This document shows, piece by piece, positions 1-18,895 of a stretch of DNA of 52,253 bases (position 1 is the first letter of the stretch; each line of letters opens with the position of its first letter). The position numbers and the translations under genes are program-made. The notes beneath the pieces were generated by a model. The model saw only the letters and a list, made by a program, of their open reading frames with translations, was not told where the DNA came from and did no database searches. Source of the stretch: Pseudomonadales bacterium. Lineage in GTDB: Bacteria; Pseudomonadota; Gammaproteobacteria; Pseudomonadales; IMCC2047. The stretch covers positions 1 to 52,253 of the forward strand of contig JAIPFG010000001.1 of assembly GCA_021736745.1 (NCBI GenBank). The letters run 5' to 3'.

Positions 1-105
1 GTACCCCTGCTTCGTCAGCGAATGTTGGCCATTCAGTTCATCGCCCACCGTGTCGGCCGCTTTCTGGAGCGCCAGGGCCTGTTGGGAAGGGATAATGCAG
101 AGTAA
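1..105 (+). CDS. 3' end of an ORF entering from upstream of the window (...IAHRVGRFLERQGLLGRDNAE*); possibly a truncated transposase remnant
   Basis: Frame +1 is open from base 1 to TAA at 103-105. Only 34 codons are visible. From memory, the RVGRFLERQGLL..RD.AE string resembles an internal segment of IS91-family transposases. This is unverified. Confidence 0.3.
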   Translation, partial: VPLLRQRMLAIQFIAHRVGRFLERQGLLGRDNAE

Positions 106-237
106 ATTGAAATCTGGGTCAAAGGAGTTCTTGCTTCTCAAGAGGGCATTTTTATCAAATCGGTACGATAACTTGTTGAATTATTATAATTATCCGTTAA
201 TCTACCGCCTTTAAAAAGACATTATAAAATCAAAAAT

Positions 238-1539
238 ATGACACGTTATTTCGTTGCTGGGGATGAATTAGTAAAATGGAGCTTTCTAGCTGAACTAAAT
301 CACACTTCCGATCCGAAGGATGCTTTTGATATAGCATGCCTGCTTCCCAGTACGGATTTTAATCTTGTATCCCAACAGTTATTCAATGCAAGACGACTAT
401 TAACGCCAATTATCAATTTAACTGGCATCAGCTGGGACCGAGCTGATTATCACGCCAGCAATCCCTCCCTGGCCGAGATAACGAAAGCGTCCGAAGAATT
501 AGCGCCTCTACTACAAGCAGTGGATCAACTTAACATTCGAGAGAGTGCTGATTATCCGAGTCTCGCCATTCTTGGTATCGCGCATACTCGTGGCAAAATG
601 ATTTCGACTCTGCGTTCAGCCAATATAGCCTGCTTAGTAGATTATCCCTTAATTTCGGGTATCACCGAGCAACGACGCTTACTGGAAGAATTGGCACATT
701 ATGGCCTGCTGGAACGCCAGTATTTTGATCGTTTGCATTTTTGTGGGCAATGCGGGTCATCCCGCCTCCATGTGCGCGAGGAGTGTATCTCTTGTCGCAG
801 CAGCAATTTACAAGCAGTCAGCCTGGTTCATCACTATCGTTGTGGATATCAGGCTGTTGAAACTGCTTTTCGCCATTCGCAAAACCTCGAATGTCCCAAA
901 TGTCATAAGCAATTACGGCATTATGGTGTTGATTATGACAAACCATCATCGGTACACAGTTGCGGCTCCTGTGGCGAAATATCTGACGAACCGGCTATTG
1001 GTTTTGTGTGTAATGATTGCTCAAAACATGAAGATGGAGCCAACATTTCAGTCCGTGAATGGCATCACTACCACCTGACACCCAGCGGAGCCGCAGCGCT
1101 GCAAGCAGGCTTTTTACCGCAAAATTCTTTACAAAGTATGTTAAGCCAGACTGTGGGGATTTGTCCCACAGCCGAGTTTGCTTCCTCCGCCGCCTATCTT
1201 TCCAAAATCGCAGAGCGCTTCTCGCGTCCTCTCAGCGCCTTGATATTACAGATCAACAACTTTGATGAATTACGTAACAATTTTGGCGTTTCCAACCTTG
1301 CGAGTGCCTTTATGTTGCTTGGCGAAGTTGTTTCCCAAATTGTTCGTTCCACTGATCTGGTCGCAGCCAAAGGGCAGTGCATTTATCTCTTATTACCAGA
1401 AACAAGTTTCGATAACCTGGATATCGTAATGCAACGGCTGCAGGAGGAAACAACCCGCCACATTTCCTTACCGCTAGACCTGAGCATTAAGCGCTATCAG
1501 ACAGAAACCATAACGGAATTATTGAGAGATATCCTCTAA
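238..1539 (+). CDS. Cys-rich (tandem zinc-ribbon-like) protein with a C-terminal degenerate GGDEF-like domain; putative c-di-GMP receptor
   Basis: 433 aa ORF. CxxC pairs at aa 169/172, 183/186, 219/222, 242/245 and 258/261. The C-terminus aligns by eye to a GGDEF fold: RSTD (aa 370-373), 5 residues, then GQCIY in place of GGDEF. Its stop overlaps the next start (TAATG). Confidence 0.75.
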   Translation: MTRYFVAGDELVKWSFLAELNHTSDPKDAFDIACLLPSTDFNLVSQQLFNARRLLTPIINLTGISWDRADYHASNPSLAEITKASEELAPLLQAVDQLNIRESADYPSLAILGIAHTRGKMISTLRSANIACLVDYPLISGITEQRRLLEELAHYGLLERQYFDRLHFCGQCGSSRLHVREECISCRSSNLQAVSLVHHYRCGYQAVETAFRHSQNLECPKCHKQLRHYGVDYDKPSSVHSCGSCGEISDEPAIGFVCNDCSKHEDGANISVREWHHYHLTPSGAAALQAGFLPQNSLQSMLSQTVGICPTAEFASSAAYLSKIAERFSRPLSALILQINNFDELRNNFGVSNLASAFMLLGEVVSQIVRSTDLVAAKGQCIYLLLPETSFDNLDIVMQRLQEETTRHISLPLDLSIKRYQTETITELLRDIL

Positions 1540-2798
1540 TGCTGGCTGATGTCATCGACATTATCAACCAAATGGATATTGATACGTTTTTCTTTATGTT
1601 CTGGTATCTCATCATTTTTGATGCCCCGCGCTACCTTTTCAGCTTAATTGCTATCATCTTCTCCCTGGTCCTTGAACGAAAAAGCCAATATCCAGCACTG
1701 AACAAGCCCGTGAGTCTGATGCTGGTTGGTCATAACGAAGCTCAAGGCTTGGAGCGAAGCATTCTGTCATTGGTTGAGCAAACACATCGTCAAATTCAGA
1801 TTGTCGTGGTCGACGATGGCTCTTCGGATAATACCGCTTATGTTGCCAATCGGTTAAAACAACAGGGATACATTGACGTTTTCCTTTCCACGGGTATCCG
1901 TGGTGGCAAGGCTGCAGCGCTTAATCTCGGCCTGGAGTTTTGTCGGCATGAAATAATTGTGTGCGCCGACATGGACACCTCTTTTGATCGCGACGCTATT
2001 GAGCGATTGACGAGTCGCTTCGTTGACCCATCTGTAGGTGCGGTCGCCGGCAATTTATATCCAAGGAATAGTTTCTATAATCTGATTACCCGGCTTCAGG
2101 CATTAGAATACTTGATGAGTATTTCTCTTGGCCGACGTTTTACCGCGATGATGGGAATACTGACCATTGTCTCCGGTGCCTTTGGAGCATCCCGTAAACA
2201 GGCGTTGTTGGCCGTTGGTGGCTGGGATGTTGGCCCCGGCGACGATGGCAATGTCACCTATAAACTTAGACGATCCGGCTGGCGTATTAACTTTGCCCAT
2301 GACGCCTGGGCAGCGACCAATGTTCCCACCACTACAACAGGCTATATTAAGCAGCGCATGCGCTGGAACAGAAGCGTGATTCGCTATAAGTTTAGGAAAT
2401 TTCGTTCTGCATACCATCCAGGCTGGTACCGATTTTCGTTTTCCGACATTGTCGCACTGAGCAATATACTGTTTTTTCAGGTGATATTAACTATCAGCTT
2501 CTTCAGCTATCTGCTTTGGTTGTTTTACCAAATGGGTAGCGCAGCGCTCTATATTGTCGCCACCATATCCATTGTTTACCTGATAGAGGATGCTATTAGC
2601 TTTATTGCAGCCTGTTTGATTTATCGATCGAGAGAACCTGAGAAACTGGGGGTTTATTTGCTGGCGAGCACTGTTTTTGAAAGCTATGTTGCCAGAGGTA
2701 TACGCTTTTTCGCCTATATTGATGAGTTGATATTCCGACGCTCATTTAGAGATACCTTTGTCCCACTCAAAGTGAAACATGTTCTGGAGCGATTTTGA
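1539..2798 (+). CDS. Processive family-2 glycosyltransferase (membrane polysaccharide synthase; Alg8/BcsA/PgaC/NodC-like)
   Basis: VVVDDGSSDNT (aa 89-99), CADMD DxD (aa 144-146), GDD (234-236), QRMRW (272-276). Hydrophobic N-terminus and 3-4 C-terminal TM helices. The start overlaps the upstream stop. Confidence 0.9.
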   Translation: MLADVIDIINQMDIDTFFFMFWYLIIFDAPRYLFSLIAIIFSLVLERKSQYPALNKPVSLMLVGHNEAQGLERSILSLVEQTHRQIQIVVVDDGSSDNTAYVANRLKQQGYIDVFLSTGIRGGKAAALNLGLEFCRHEIIVCADMDTSFDRDAIERLTSRFVDPSVGAVAGNLYPRNSFYNLITRLQALEYLMSISLGRRFTAMMGILTIVSGAFGASRKQALLAVGGWDVGPGDDGNVTYKLRRSGWRINFAHDAWAATNVPTTTTGYIKQRMRWNRSVIRYKFRKFRSAYHPGWYRFSFSDIVALSNILFFQVILTISFFSYLLWLFYQMGSAALYIVATISIVYLIEDAISFIAACLIYRSREPEKLGVYLLASTVFESYVARGIRFFAYIDELIFRRSFRDTFVPLKVKHVLERF

Positions 2799-3823
2799 TT
2801 ACAAGGCTAAGGAAAAAACAGCGGGTTGATAAACTTCAATCTGAATCAAGAGGCAATAAGGGAACCGTTGGTCGTTGGGTATATCTTATTCTGGCATCCT
2901 GTCTGCTACTCTGGTTGTTGGATACCTTTTTCGGTAAATACATCTTTTTTCGTGCTGACGGCATGGTCATGCGTGATGTTAGCACCATAGCAGTCAGTTA
3001 TACTGCCGCTGTTGACAAGCTAAACGTAGAGGAAGGTAAACCGGCAAAAGCTGGAAAGATGCTGGTACAGCTCAATTCGATTGATATTCTGAAGCAGCTG
3101 GGTGATCTGTCTATCAAAACCGCAGAAGTAAGAAGCCGAATCGCGGAACTACACAGTCGACAGAGCCAACTGAATAAAATGCGGCCCCTCGCAGACGAGC
3201 AGGTTAGAAAAATAGCAAAACTACGCGAAACTGAAGAGCGCGCGATTGCCAAGGGGCTTGTTGATACACGTAAATTATCAGAATTTTTAGAGGATGAATT
3301 CAACAGCCGAATGACCCGGGAAAAACTGCTTGGCGAACAAAGCAGTATCGGACAAGAGACTACGGCATTACGTGAGATCGAAAGCAGTTTGCAAAATAGC
3401 ATCAATAGGATAAATACTGCTTACGCAAACGGTATTGTGGTGGCACCAAAGGATGTTACTGTATCAAGAGTTTATGTCAATGAAGGCAGTGTCGTAAAAA
3501 GTGGAGAACCCTTGCTCGAGTTACTTTCAGGAGATTCCTATGTCCTAGCTTATGTGACTCCCGGCTCAGTATATATTGCCGAAGTCGGTGAAACTGTCAG
3601 CGTTAAATACGGACTGAAAACGCTAAAAGGGAAAATAGCACAAGTTTTCCCCATATCTGCACGATTGCCATTAGAGTTTCAACGGACCTTTAGACCGCAA
3701 GAGCGTACCCAGGTTATGCGTGTTGATTTTGCTCCCAACCAAGATATTCCCGCTACCTTTACCAAGGCTAGGGTAGTTACCGCAGGCTTAATACCCAGGT
3801 GGATAGATGGGCTGTTTAACTAA
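2795..3823 (+). CDS. HlyD-family membrane-fusion (periplasmic adaptor) protein
   Basis: Single N-terminal TM (WVYLILASCLLLWLL), lipoyl-like halves flanking a long charged coiled coil, and a C-terminal beta-barrel-like region. The TTG start overlaps the GT2 stop (TTGA). Confidence 0.8.
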   Translation: MITRLRKKQRVDKLQSESRGNKGTVGRWVYLILASCLLLWLLDTFFGKYIFFRADGMVMRDVSTIAVSYTAAVDKLNVEEGKPAKAGKMLVQLNSIDILKQLGDLSIKTAEVRSRIAELHSRQSQLNKMRPLADEQVRKIAKLRETEERAIAKGLVDTRKLSEFLEDEFNSRMTREKLLGEQSSIGQETTALREIESSLQNSINRINTAYANGIVVAPKDVTVSRVYVNEGSVVKSGEPLLELLSGDSYVLAYVTPGSVYIAEVGETVSVKYGLKTLKGKIAQVFPISARLPLEFQRTFRPQERTQVMRVDFAPNQDIPATFTKARVVTAGLIPRWIDGLFN

Positions 3824-4707
3824 TTATCGCTAATTATCAAGTTTGCTCAGGCAGCACTCTGTAATTATGCTCAAAGCACTCTTTTGTTTGCCAGAAAGCG
3901 ATAGGACTCAGCAACCATAATACAATTAGGCTAGGTATTGCCATTGTTGATGACGAGTTTATTGTACTAAGTCTGGAAAGTATAAGTGTGAGAGGGTGCT
4001 AGCCAACAACGACAAAGAGATGCGCATTGTCACAGAGGACTATAATCTTGTTGAAGGGAGTCATAAATTTTCTCCGCATCAGCATCACACTCAATCAAAC
4101 ATCAAGCATATCGGAAGCTCGTAACCCATCGCTTGTATCCCATTGACAGGGCAAGTCTGGTTGAGTTCTGTTTGCTCGATAGTCATGCCAACGAACCCGT
4201 TCATGCCAATACAAAAAATTAATGCGCTATATTAGCTGAATCAAAGTAAAAAAAGAAAAGGAAGTTGAAAGCTAGTATTAGACATTCTGTTGTTTATAGC
4301 GAATAGGGATTTATCCTTCCTCTACAAAAAATTAAGGAGTTGTCGGAACCTGAGTAGCGAAAAGAGAGGGTTGCGGGCTATTTCTCAGAATATTTGAGAC
4401 ATTCTCAGAGGTTAGCATTTCACAAAAAATATTTAAAAATTAAGTGATAAATGTTCTATTGAGCTTTCCGAAGTCTTTCAAAATGTTGCCAGGAAAGGAT
4501 TTGAATTTTTAAGAGTGTGAATTATGCGCTACTTGAAAAAGTAAAATTTCAACATGAATGTTAAAATTTTAAATTAATTATAAAAATTTTTGGTAATGGC
4601 ATGCTCTATGAAGAAACAGTTTAAGTTATTTAAAATTAATAAATAATCAAGTGAGAGTTATCTTCGGATAGCGCTCTTCCTCAGTTTTTGGGTGACTACT
4701 GTCGATC

Positions 4708-5190
4708 ATGATGAATCAGGAAATATTGAATTCCATCCATGAAAAATGGATGCTCGAAGCTCTTTATTTGGCGCAGCTGGCAGAGCAGCAAGATGAAGTG
4801 CCTGTCGGTGCGGTTGTGGTTTTGGACAATCAAATCATTGGGCGCGGCTTTAATCAGCCGATTTCCGCCAACGATCCCACCGCACATGCTGAGGTTATGG
4901 CGTTGCGTGATGCCGCCAAGCATCAAGGTAACTACCGGCTGGTTGATTGTACCCTCTATGTCACGATCGAACCCTGCGCTATGTGTGCTGGTGCCATGGT
5001 ACACGCTCGCATTAAACAATTGGTTTATGGGGCTAGCGAACCCAAATCGGGGGTTATTACCAGTCATCTCAAGTTGCTTGATGCTGGACATCTGAATCAT
5101 AAGGTTGAGGTGCAGGGCGGTATATTGGCTTCTGAATGTGCTGAACGGATGAGCTTGTTTTTTAAACGCAGGCGTGAGCAGAAGCGATAA
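4708..5190 (+). CDS. tadA: tRNA-specific adenosine deaminase
   Basis: CDA zinc motifs HAEVMALR and PCAMCAGA. Size of about 160 aa. An alternative ATG lies one codon downstream. Confidence 0.9.
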   Translation: MMNQEILNSIHEKWMLEALYLAQLAEQQDEVPVGAVVVLDNQIIGRGFNQPISANDPTAHAEVMALRDAAKHQGNYRLVDCTLYVTIEPCAMCAGAMVHARIKQLVYGASEPKSGVITSHLKLLDAGHLNHKVEVQGGILASECAERMSLFFKRRREQKR

Positions 5191-5228
5191 TTTAAATAAT
5201 TTCTGGCAGACGTTTCTGAAACGTACGA

Positions 5229-6533
5229 CTAACTGATAATCGTTGTTCTCTGTGTTCTGGCGATATGTTCCTTAACTAGTTCCGGTACCCCCGCCTCGTC
5301 AGCAAATGTGGGCCACTCACGTATCGCTTGTTGTACCTGGGCGAGTATTTCCAGCGCCCGGCCGCGTCGCATCGAGGCATTTTTTGCATAGGCGATAAAA
5401 TCATCGAGATGAAAATTATCCCTTTTTCCGTTGAGTGACATCTGATGAAGCCCGGTCCAAGCGCCGGTTGGATTATAGCTATAGGTAAGATCAAAGGCGG
5501 GGGATAAAGACCAATTGCCTGTTTTATCCATCAGAAAGGCAATATTCTTGACATGGTCATCTTGGTTGCGCCCCAGAATATTGAAGCAAAGGCGGCGAAA
5601 TTGTTCTTCGATACTGGCCATGGGTAGCCCCAGTTGACGAATGATATATTGGGCCTGTTCATAGGAGTAGGCTCCTGCCTGATTGAAATCGTAATGGGCG
5701 ATGGCACACAGAGATTGCATATGAATTTTCTGACCAGCATCGGTTCGGTCAAATCTTTTGGTCATAAAGTGGCTACGTCCGTTTTCCTGTAATAACTGGC
5801 ATTCGGTCATGGAGATACCGGCTTGTAGTGCCATCTTGTGATAGGCAAATTCAATAAGACCATATCCCTTCGGGTCTTCGAGTTCTTTGTCTTTATTCCC
5901 GGAGACACCATCGAATTTTAGAAGCCAATAGGAGAAACCTTGCCCGGCGCTAACCTGCCCAGAGCGAACTTCATGGGTTTCCGGGTTCCAGGCGATAATA
6001 GCCTTCGCTCGGGCACCACCGGCAGAAGTCCCGACCCGTAAAATATCCAGTAGTGCTTTTTCTCGTGCCGGACTGCCAAAGGAACTCTCCAATGTGTGAC
6101 GACGGGTTAGAATTTCTCCTGCCAGTTCTACTAGTTTGTTCACTTCAATTTGCTCGGAATCTTTCTGCGAGGGTCCTAAACTAGGGGTAAATTCAAGGGC
6201 CCCCATGCCCCGTTTCCCGGTGTAACAGAGTCGTTCGACCGGATTAAAGCTTTCTGGTGTGCGGCCCTCTCTTGCTAGCCACGTGTCGATAAGTGCATTG
6301 CCAAAACGATCGGGTAGTGAATCCGCCAGTAAACCAGGCAGGCCGTGGAAGGTATGAAAAGGAAGCGTCGGAAAAGCGTATATCTGATCGGACAGTGGCA
6401 TCGTGATAGGGGCAATTTCGATAGCACTGCTAACAAAGCTGGGATCATACTCAAAGTAACCGTAGTTTTTTTCCTTATCCCAACTCACGGCGCCAATGGT
6501 TCGTCCCCAAAGCTGGACGCTGGCAATGGTCAT
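5229..6533 (-). CDS. hipA: Type II toxin HipA-family serine/threonine kinase
   Basis: 434 aa. The N-terminal coupling domain (VQLWGRTIGAVSWD...FEYDP) and a C-terminal kinase core with NQDDHVKNIAF are typical of HipA. There is a 4-nt overlap with the upstream HTH gene. Confidence 0.9.
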   Translation of the reverse strand: MTIASVQLWGRTIGAVSWDKEKNYGYFEYDPSFVSSAIEIAPITMPLSDQIYAFPTLPFHTFHGLPGLLADSLPDRFGNALIDTWLAREGRTPESFNPVERLCYTGKRGMGALEFTPSLGPSQKDSEQIEVNKLVELAGEILTRRHTLESSFGSPAREKALLDILRVGTSAGGARAKAIIAWNPETHEVRSGQVSAGQGFSYWLLKFDGVSGNKDKELEDPKGYGLIEFAYHKMALQAGISMTECQLLQENGRSHFMTKRFDRTDAGQKIHMQSLCAIAHYDFNQAGAYSYEQAQYIIRQLGLPMASIEEQFRRLCFNILGRNQDDHVKNIAFLMDKTGNWSLSPAFDLTYSYNPTGAWTGLHQMSLNGKRDNFHLDDFIAYAKNASMRRGRALEILAQVQQAIREWPTFADEAGVPELVKEHIARTQRTTIIS

Positions 6534-6880
6534 TCTTTATCCCCCCAGGACCAGGACGGCGTTACTTGTTTTTCCTTACTTGGCAAAGAGGCGCGTTGTC
6601 TGACTTTCCCGCGCATTTTTGCCTGCTGAATGGGACTAATGACCGGTGCCGGCGCCAGACCGTCGATCCGTTCAAATAAATCGAGTGCGCGCAGAACGCG
6701 GATGAAGTTGGACAGCTGGGTAGATCGACCTTTTTCCAGGCGCTGGATCGTGGGTACGGACACGCCTGCTTCCATGGCCAAAGCTTCCTGGGTCATGTTT
6801 TTATTCAAACGATAACGGGCGATTCTGGACCCCAGCTCGAGTAAGACCGCCTTATCGGACATCTCTTTTGAAATAGTCAT
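6530..6880 (-). CDS. hipB: HipB-like XRE-family HTH antitoxin
   Basis: XRE helix-turn-helix (MTQEALAMEAGVSVPTIQRLEKG). 116 aa. ATGA overlap with hipA. Confidence 0.85.
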   Translation of the reverse strand: MTISKEMSDKAVLLELGSRIARYRLNKNMTQEALAMEAGVSVPTIQRLEKGRSTQLSNFIRVLRALDLFERIDGLAPAPVISPIQQAKMRGKVRQRASLPSKEKQVTPSWSWGDKE

Positions 6881-18040: not shown

Positions 18041-18895
18041 TCAAGGCAAAACGGACACTCGGTTTCTTCCGGTGTTTTTTGAGTGATATAAAGCTTTGTC
18101 TGCACGCTTATAGAGTGTGGCTTGATGATCATTTGGTTGGATAGCCGCAATACCAATACTGATCGTTAAACGGTGAGAATGTTTACCAATAGCCTGGTTT
18201 ACGAAGGCGTTGCGTATCTTTTCACAGATTTTCTGAGCTTGGGTTAAATTGGTTTCTATCATAAGAAAGGCAAACTCATCTCCACCCAGGCGAAATATCT
18301 CGTCGGAAGAGCGTGTGATGCTGGATATTCGCTTTGATACTGCAGTGAGTAACTCATCGCCAGCATCGTGGCCGTAAGTGTCGTTAATCTTCTTAAAGTG
18401 GTCAATATCGATCAGTGCCAGCGACAGGTCTCGGTGATAGCGCAGCGCACGGTCAGTCTCTCGGGCCATAATATGCTCAAAGGCTCGTCTGTTTTTTGTC
18501 TGGGTTAAGGCGTCGGTTGTTGACAGTCTGCCTAATTGTGCAATTTTTACTTGATCACCCTGATACTTCATTACCATGATGGCGGTGCCTGTAATCAGAA
18601 AAATAGCCAGAGCTCTATTGATGATGGCTATCTCCATAAAACCCGCTACGGGGGGTGATAGATAGTAACCCAGAAGGGTCAGCAGGATGCTGGTGATCGC
18701 AATGATACAGGTGGTTACATAATTTTCTGATTTGAGGCTGAACATGACAACAAAGGCGTAAGGTATGCCGGCGGCAATGCCGGAGGGCAGCAGGAGATCG
18801 ATAATAAAGATCAGCAGGAGGAATAAAAGCTTTATCATCCCGACCATGGAGACTAGGTGTTTACTTGCCATTAACATGCGGTCAAATCGCCTCAA
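18041..18895 (-). CDS. Membrane-bound diguanylate cyclase (GGDEF) with I-site
   Basis: Four to five N-terminal TM helices, DALTQTKNRRAF, and RSSD followed by 5 aa and then GGDEF (RLGGDEFAFL). Confidence 0.9.
   Translation of the reverse strand: MRRFDRMLMASKHLVSMVGMIKLLFLLLIFIIDLLLPSGIAAGIPYAFVVMFSLKSENYVTTCIIAITSILLTLLGYYLSPPVAGFMEIAIINRALAIFLITGTAIMVMKYQGDQVKIAQLGRLSTTDALTQTKNRRAFEHIMARETDRALRYHRDLSLALIDIDHFKKINDTYGHDAGDELLTAVSKRISSITRSSDEIFRLGGDEFAFLMIETNLTQAQKICEKIRNAFVNQAIGKHSHRLTISIGIAAIQPNDHQATLYKRADKALYHSKNTGRNRVSVLP

Follow-up and report, generated by a model that had tools for sequence, protein, structure and literature searches.

The first complete open reading frame (ORF) of a 52,253-nucleotide stretch of DNA from a Pseudomonadales bacterium of the IMCC2047 lineage (assembly GCA_021736745.1, contig JAIPFG010000001.1, positions 1 to 52,253 of the forward strand; hereafter, the window) occupies positions 238-1539, and translation of its plus strand from 238 to 1536 yields a product of 433 amino acids. 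The stop codon of this gene overlaps the start codon of the next one (TAATG), which codes for a family 2 glycosyltransferase (GT2), and the start of a third gene, coding for a periplasmic adaptor of the HlyD type, overlaps the stop codon of the GT2 gene in turn (Table 1). Here we argue that the product of the first gene is most likely a soluble receptor for cyclic diguanylate (c-di-GMP) of the MxdA family, so named after a protein of Shewanella oneidensis, and that it activates the coupled GT2/adaptor machine through the inhibitory-site (I-site) pocket of an enzymatically dead GGDEF domain.

Table 1. Features of the window considered in the text; positions are counted from the first nucleotide of the window
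Feature	Positions	Strand	Basis
mxdA-like gene, 433-residue soluble protein: N-terminal alpha/beta domain, TackOD1 zinc-ribbon domain, degenerate GGDEF domain	238..1539	+	ORF, Pfam, BLASTP to MxdA
N-terminal domain, residues 1-112, predicted beta-alpha repeats	238..573	+	secondary structure of the AlphaFold2 model
TackOD1 domain, residues 115-280, five CxxC pairs, C202 and His residues	580..1077	+	PF18551, E 9.9e-46
Degenerate GGDEF-like domain, C-terminally short, residues about 311-433	1168..1536	+	PF00990, family profile against PDB, Foldseek
R327 and R330 (ERFSRPL), co-varying with RxxD	1216..1227	+	alignment to canonical GGDEF domains, homologue counts
N341-F-D-E-L345, counterpart of "NVDEF" of MxdA	1258..1272	+	BLASTP to MxdA; hmmsearch of MxdA against canonical GGDEF domains
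I-site motif R370-S-T-D373	1345..1356	+	aligned on RxxD of DosC, GcbC and 3ign and on RVTD 387-390 of MxdA
Active-site hairpin remnant K378-G-Q-C-I-Y383 in place of GG(D/E)EF	1369..1386	+	hmmalign; columns vary widely among the homologues
R400, aligned with the third I-site Arg	1435..1437	+	hmmalign: first Arg of the canonical AERIR helix
mxdB-like processive membrane GT2 synthase, 419 residues	1539..2798	+	Pfam Glycos_transf_2, E 3e-25; 33.5% identity to MxdB
mxdC-like HlyD/membrane-fusion-type periplasmic adaptor, 342 residues	2795..3823	+	Pfam HlyD_3; EmrA in PDB; 22% identity to MxdC
Comparator membrane GGDEF cyclase with intact RSSD-EIFRL-GGDEF	18041..18895	-	translation; PF00990, E 1.8e-45

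The argument hinges on a short string in the C-terminal domain. Residues 370-383 of the translation read R370-S-T-D373, LVAAK and G379-Q-C-I-Y383, nucleotide 1345 being the start of codon 370, just as a preliminary description of the window had it (RSTD-LVAAK-GQCIY at codons 370-383, nucleotides 1345-1386). RSTD is the sole RxxD among the 433 residues; from the amino acid composition, 1.3 such motifs would be expected by chance anywhere in the protein, and the chance is about 0.3% per fixed position. The motif by itself is unremarkable; it is its position and its conservation that carry the weight.

As regards position, the PF00990 profile matches residues 321-407 at profile positions 22-109 of 161, and a phmmer search of the PDB aligns vRSTDlvaakGQCIY with VRSSDYVFRYGGDEF of DosC, with RSTD placed on RSSD. 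When the GGDEF domains in the PDB were searched with a profile built from 23 of the family's C-terminal domains, GcbC (E 2e-11), DosC (8e-11) and 3ign (3e-10) were matched, and in each of these alignments the RxxD of the family falls on the RxxD of the structure. When an AlphaFold2 model built from 34 homologues (mean predicted local distance difference test score 89.3) was compared with the PDB by Foldseek, the best matches were GGDEF domains, namely, those of Thermotoga maritima (4urg), DosC, PleD, WspR and SiaD. Pfam, phmmer, the family profile and Foldseek thus agree that RSTD occupies the inhibitory site and KGQCIY the active-site hairpin, the very register that the preliminary description had assumed. 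The intact cyclase that it had invoked for comparison, with RSSD-EIFRL-GGDEF at 18041-18895, does exist, on the minus strand: the reverse complement encodes a membrane protein that reads ...RSSDEIFRLGGDEF..., and the plus-strand frame at these positions is interrupted by many stop codons.

The further claim that exactly five residues separate the I-site from the destroyed GGDEF motif holds for the string as written but, in terms of homology, leaves an uncertainty of one residue. The profile alignments, the alignment to MxdA and a hidden Markov model of nine active GGDEF domains from the host genome all require the deletion of one residue between RxxD and the conserved LLPET, so that the pentad homologous to GGDEF is either K378-I382 or G379-Y383. 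One metagenomic representative of the family, P0138 (433 residues), keeps RPVD-VMCE-AGDEF at the aligned hairpin, where AGDEF survives from the ancestral active site. Because P0138 reads in this way, the deletion may be placed in the linker between RxxD and the hairpin, which suggests K378-I382 as the counterpart of the catalytic pentad.

The catalytic apparatus itself has been lost. When the protein was aligned (hmmalign) to nine canonical GGDEF domains from its host genome, the Mg-binding Asp of DxDxFK, the FK of the same motif, ND and GD, which contact the guanine, and GG[DE]EF all proved to be replaced; QINNFDE stands in the DxDxFK region and KGQCIY in the hairpin. Under both readings of the pentad, the active site is destroyed because neither of them contains an acidic residue. 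Of the features that mark an active diguanylate cyclase, the GG(D/E)EF motif, the Mg-binding Asp and the full-length domain are all missing, and, judged by these residues, the protein is unable to make c-di-GMP.

What evolution has preserved is the other site of the domain. In a set of 34 homologues that share 29-97% identity with the protein encoded in the window (33 of the 34 fall below 65%), D373 and R330 are invariant, R370, R327, E388 and T389 are conserved in at least 90%, and the active-site columns are not conserved at all. A broader set of 157 cluster representatives covering the domain can be divided into a short class (under 520 residues; 134 representatives) and a class fused to a receiver (REC) domain (23 representatives). 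The short class keeps R370 in 117 and D373 in 123 of its 134 members, and the five-residue pattern R327/R330/R370/D373/R400, intact in 82 of the 157, tends to go as a set. Among 98 homologues from named genomes, which include Pseudomonas, Marinobacter, Nitrosomonas, Legionellales, Desulfobacterota, Synergistota, Victivallales, Fibrobacterota and Bacillota, the Asp is present in all 98, RxxD in 93, and R327, which aligns with a conserved helix Arg of canonical GGDEF domains, in 97; R330 is invariant only within the subfamily to which the protein in the window belongs.

R400 sits on the helix after the hairpin, as the extra Arg of I-site-only receptors would. By this position we equate it with R402 of PelD, which we take to lie in the helix after the hairpin, and with R390, presumably the PleD counterpart; the I-site residues of PleD are, we assume, the same set as those of PelD. 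The protein also combines the two other traits of receptors of this kind, that is, RxxD in the I-site register and the loss of the catalytic as well as the metal- and substrate-binding residues. In PelD, binding of c-di-GMP needs R367 and D370 of the RxxD together with R402 (PMC8461298). The host genome contains at least 14 genes for GGDEF-domain proteins, which indicates that c-di-GMP signalling is in use in this organism.

The link to MxdA was reached stepwise: a tblastn search of plasmids led to relatives in Photobacterium, Plesiomonas and Aeromonas, and the Photobacterium protein led to the proteins of Shewanella, among which cluster P0430 was recognized by its source names as MxdA (SO4180, AAN57153.1). 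BLASTP against MxdA of S. oneidensis MR-1 gives 26% identity over 312 residues (E 4e-28), with residues 133-433 of the query on 149-456 of MxdA, that is, across TackOD1 and the GGDEF-like domain to the C-terminus, and with RSTD on RVTD 387-390. The Pfam architecture of MxdA is identical in kind (PF18551, E 5e-71; PF00990, 22.5 bits), and the downstream genes of the window are colinear with the mxdABCD locus of MR-1 and overlap likewise, the GT2 matching MxdB with 33.5% identity (E 1e-45) and the adaptor matching MxdC with 22% (E 3e-10). By homology, then, the ORF at 238-1539 adds a distant new member to a family that is known but has been little studied, with which it has in common TackOD1, the GGDEF-like domain with its aligned RxxD, and the place of the first gene before the GT2 and adaptor genes in an overlapping operon; the subfamily represented in the window differs from MxdA in a hairpin that is one residue shorter and in the additional invariant R330, and in the window no mxdD homologue comes after the adaptor gene. 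A tblastn search with MxdD, which is short and of low complexity, gave no match at E up to 10 in positions 1-6000 of the window and none in the other loci searched, and we read mxdD as an accessory of the Shewanella lineage and not as a defining part of the system.

Rakshe and co-workers are said to have found, in 2011, that MxdA lacks cyclase activity in vitro. The mxd genes are needed for three-dimensional biofilm and for aggregation (PMC3691769). MxdA is reported to be an effector of Mxd-dependent exopolysaccharide production that binds c-di-GMP (PMC7666153, PMC11395469 and PMC13713693, with reference to Gambari et al. 2019); it is also reported to contact CheY3 and the cyclase PdgA (PMC7666153, PMC11395469) and is said to stimulate polysaccharide synthesis via MxdB (PMC13713693). 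The alignments also bear on the "NVDEF" of MxdA (residues 358-362; L274:8072-8086), which has been cited in the literature as its GGDEF analogue: this pentapeptide falls on the DxDxFK motif of strand beta1 in canonical domains and precedes RVTD by 29 residues, and the position of the active-site hairpin reads YTRDG, so that NVDEF, by alignment, is not the homologue of the active site. A search of the genome contigs with a degenerate RxxD-N15-NVDEF DNA pattern returned chance matches only, because NVDEF does not lie at the active site. A primer for the mxd promoter (PMC3691769) matched once, by chance, in a Saprospiraceae contig and nowhere in metagenomes.

Upstream of the GGDEF-like domain, the Cys columns of TackOD1 are invariant among the 34 homologues, and this domain is a triple zinc-ribbon. 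No Pfam family matches the N-terminal domain (residues 1-112). The notion that it might be a pseudo-receiver was rejected, given that hhalign against the receiver domains of the REC-fused relatives yielded a probability of 2%.

The GT2 encoded downstream also matches further GT2 families of Pfam, including Chitin_synth_2, and gives partial matches, below the cut-offs, to NCBIfam models of the PgaC/NodC type; in the PDB, it is related to hyaluronan and chitin synthases. In each of the 19 loci with enough flanking sequence, the mxdA-like gene is immediately followed by a homologue of the GT2 gene, and the adaptor gene then follows in all five loci with long flanks. The same trio is found within unrelated flanks in Pseudomaricurvus, Stappia, Microvirga and metagenome-assembled genomes (MAGs) of Cellvibrionaceae and Pseudomonadaceae. 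The distribution is patchy, as the gene is present in 16 of 400 sampled genomes of the class, a sample in which no Shewanella could be recognized. No c-di-GMP riboswitch or other RNA element reached the Rfam gathering score anywhere in the window, and a scan for promoters and terminators performed no better than on shuffled sequences.

Some further features of the surroundings can be recorded here. The 884 bp at positions 3824-4707 of the window, 3' of the adaptor gene, where Shewanella has mxdD, contain no ORF of 60 or more codons and no Rfam match; at 5229-6880, a putative HipA-like ORF (434 residues), with a small ORF (116 residues) upstream of it, is flanked by tadA and an ABC transporter. 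An outer-membrane porin of the MtrB/PioB type is encoded elsewhere in the host MAG, outside the window (G000:C154:698-2548; PF11854, E 1.8e-92), which hints at extracellular electron transfer or iron oxidation. Among the relatives, an MxdA-type gene annotated as "diguanylate cyclase" resides next to par and RelE/ParE genes on the mobilizable 29-kb plasmid pKAM345_3 of Aeromonas caviae (L272:4620-6002), and in one genome of high guanine-cytosine content (L026/L269, G271:C6:194285-197923) the C-terminal domain (LRDSDVLTARSES...) is found in another frame than TackOD1, which points either to a pseudogene with a frameshift or to an error of assembly.

Sensors built on a degenerate GGDEF domain or an I-site-like module are known from other GT2 synthase systems, as exemplified by PssE of Listeria and the receptors of the YdaK/DgrA type in Bacillus. 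BcsE, with its GIL/degenerate GGDEF domain, is another I-site-like c-di-GMP-sensing module in the service of a GT2 synthase system (PMC8461298), and a c-di-GMP-inducible exopolysaccharide of Listeria is mentioned in PMC4125290. All these proteins differ from the one described here in their accessory domains and partners, and they come with neither a zinc-ribbon domain nor a gene for an HlyD-type adaptor. In the mixed-linkage glucan system, the synthase BgsA has BgsB as its membrane-fusion-type partner. BgsA is a GT2 that binds c-di-GMP (PMC5567048), and in alginate synthesis the GT2 Alg8 and the membrane-fusion-type Alg44 are likewise under direct control of c-di-GMP (PMC8461298). There, however, the receptor is a PilZ domain fused to the adaptor (Alg44) or the C-terminal domain of the synthase (BgsA) and not a separate soluble protein with a dead GGDEF domain. 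TackOD1 (PF18551) is shared with the REC-TackOD1 response regulators of Thaumarchaeota (Galperin et al. 2018, PMC5847659), which are described as response-regulator outputs of obscure function, with no GGDEF-like domain or link to a synthase discussed (PMC5847659).

PelD, of the Pel system of Pseudomonas aeruginosa, deserves separate consideration, for it was the example named in the preliminary description. It, too, is a degenerate GGDEF receptor that binds its ligand through RxxD and a downstream Arg (PMC8461298), and it controls an exopolysaccharide synthase post-translationally, as is proposed here for the product of the ORF at 238-1539. Unlike the latter, PelD is a membrane protein with four transmembrane helices and a GAF domain, its partner PelF is a glycosyltransferase of family 4, and it has no TackOD1. 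The protein in the window has no GAF match, its gene neighbours are GT2 and HlyD-like genes and not pelE-G, and PelD does not appear among its top sequence and fold matches. PelD was therefore rejected as the family of this protein. The parallel stands for the class of mechanism alone, the closest relative being MxdA and the degenerate GGDEF domain being all that is shared with PelD. The broader reading in the preliminary description, that of an effector and not an enzyme, fares well: the register, the lost catalytic residues, the kept RxxD and the homology to MxdA all speak for it.

With these data, the following chain of events can be envisaged. The dead GGDEF domain retains the residues of the I-site pocket, R370 and D373 together with R400 from the following helix and R327 from the preceding one. 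The most likely ligand of this pocket is c-di-GMP, probably bound as an intercalated dimer by analogy with PelD and PleD. Its binding would alter the conformation or the oligomeric state of the receptor and thereby activate the GT2 of the MxdB type that is translationally coupled to it, which would then polymerize and export a polysaccharide with the help of the MxdC-like periplasmic adaptor. We infer all three elements of this scheme, namely, the binding of c-di-GMP by the protein, RxxD as the binding site, and the activation of the synthase.

Several observations count against this scheme. The PF00990 score barely passes (23.9 bits against a gathering cut-off of 23.8), and the 26% identity to MxdA is low. 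The hairpin is one residue shorter than in canonical GGDEF domains and in MxdA, and the domain stops about 50 residues past it, either of which could have altered the pocket; R400 is kept in about two thirds of the relatives (91 of the 134 short-class representatives). Finally, RxxD is absent from all 23 REC-fused relatives, which implies that the scaffold is not strictly dependent on the site.

This last observation leads to the alternative that we take most seriously, improbable as it appears to us: RxxD and the partner arginines might be kept for the sake of structure or contacts, such as salt bridges to TackOD1, to the synthase or to a CheY-type partner. The protein would then, with the same small likelihood, be a c-di-GMP-independent scaffold or activator run by the zinc/redox state or by a phosphorylated receiver. 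In line with such a role, REC-fused relatives without RxxD still precede GT2 and adaptor genes, MxdA is reported to interact with CheY3 (PMC7666153), and the cysteines of TackOD1 are the most conserved feature of the family. A purely structural role would nevertheless leave it unexplained why the conserved residues match the I-site set of PelD (R367/D370 and R402; PMC8461298), why the pocket residues co-vary as a set, and why RxxD has been lost exactly where a receiver domain supplies another input; moreover, MxdA is reported to bind c-di-GMP. The same report on MxdA, together with the identity of the conserved residues to the standard c-di-GMP I-site, makes it still less probable that the pocket accommodates a different nucleotide, be it another cyclic dinucleotide, the linear dinucleotide pGpG or guanosine tetra- or pentaphosphate (ppGpp or pppGpp), as seen beside c-di-GMP in recent PleD structures. 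Such a shift in specificity, to which we would give slight credence, could be explained by the length of the hairpin and the subfamily-specific R330; the one-residue deletion in the hairpin, the invariance of R330 in this subfamily alone, and the presence of PleD structures with ppGpp or pppGpp among the fold matches are compatible with it, but positive evidence in its favor is lacking. It is hardly credible that the protein has remained a diguanylate cyclase by means of an unorthodox active site. It is true that many homologues bear the name "diguanylate cyclase" in NCBI and UniRef, that degenerate motifs such as AGDEF are active in some other proteins (PMC3974145), and that the relative P0138 keeps AGDEF. 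Against these stand a hairpin without an acidic residue, the replacement of the metal-binding Asp and of the guanine-binding Asn and Asp, and the absence of the C-terminal third of the domain; residual cyclase activity was rejected on the residues found missing in the alignment to the nine canonical GGDEF domains. Hence, we favor a c-di-GMP receptor that acts through the I-site pocket.

The REC-fused relatives (560-620 residues; L035:430-2130, L036:13-1755, L034:2658-4475) carry a genuine N-terminal receiver and have lost the whole pocket, with R370 found in none of the 23. Three of these loci were inspected: in L035 and L036, the fused gene lies ahead of homologous GT2 and adaptor genes; in L034, an adaptor-like gene and a gene without a Pfam match come after it; and histidine phosphotransfer (Hpt) genes are located nearby in L034 and L036. 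One may speculate, with considerable reserve, that the TackOD1/dead-GGDEF regulator is a two-input switch the inputs of which are interchangeable in evolution, with c-di-GMP used where the pocket has been kept; the REC-fused form may be the alternative, phospho-input version of the same switch. Should the regulator be such a switch, the fusions would lend "Rosetta-stone" support to the contact between CheY3 and MxdA reported in Shewanella. With the same reserve, the subfamily found in the window, given its invariant R330 and its shorter hairpin, might differ from MxdA in the stoichiometry or specificity of ligand binding.

The kind of protein described here is already known, and a specialist in c-di-GMP signalling will find nothing surprising in it. 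Still, a widespread, poorly studied module for the control of exopolysaccharide synthesis is now annotated in an uncultured marine-type gammaproteobacterium, and the "function-obscure" TackOD1 domain (Galperin et al. 2018) is tied to an experimentally studied protein. For the MxdA family as a whole, the comparative evidence points to a c-di-GMP pocket composed of the RxxD I-site and two arginines, which gives precise residues to mutate.

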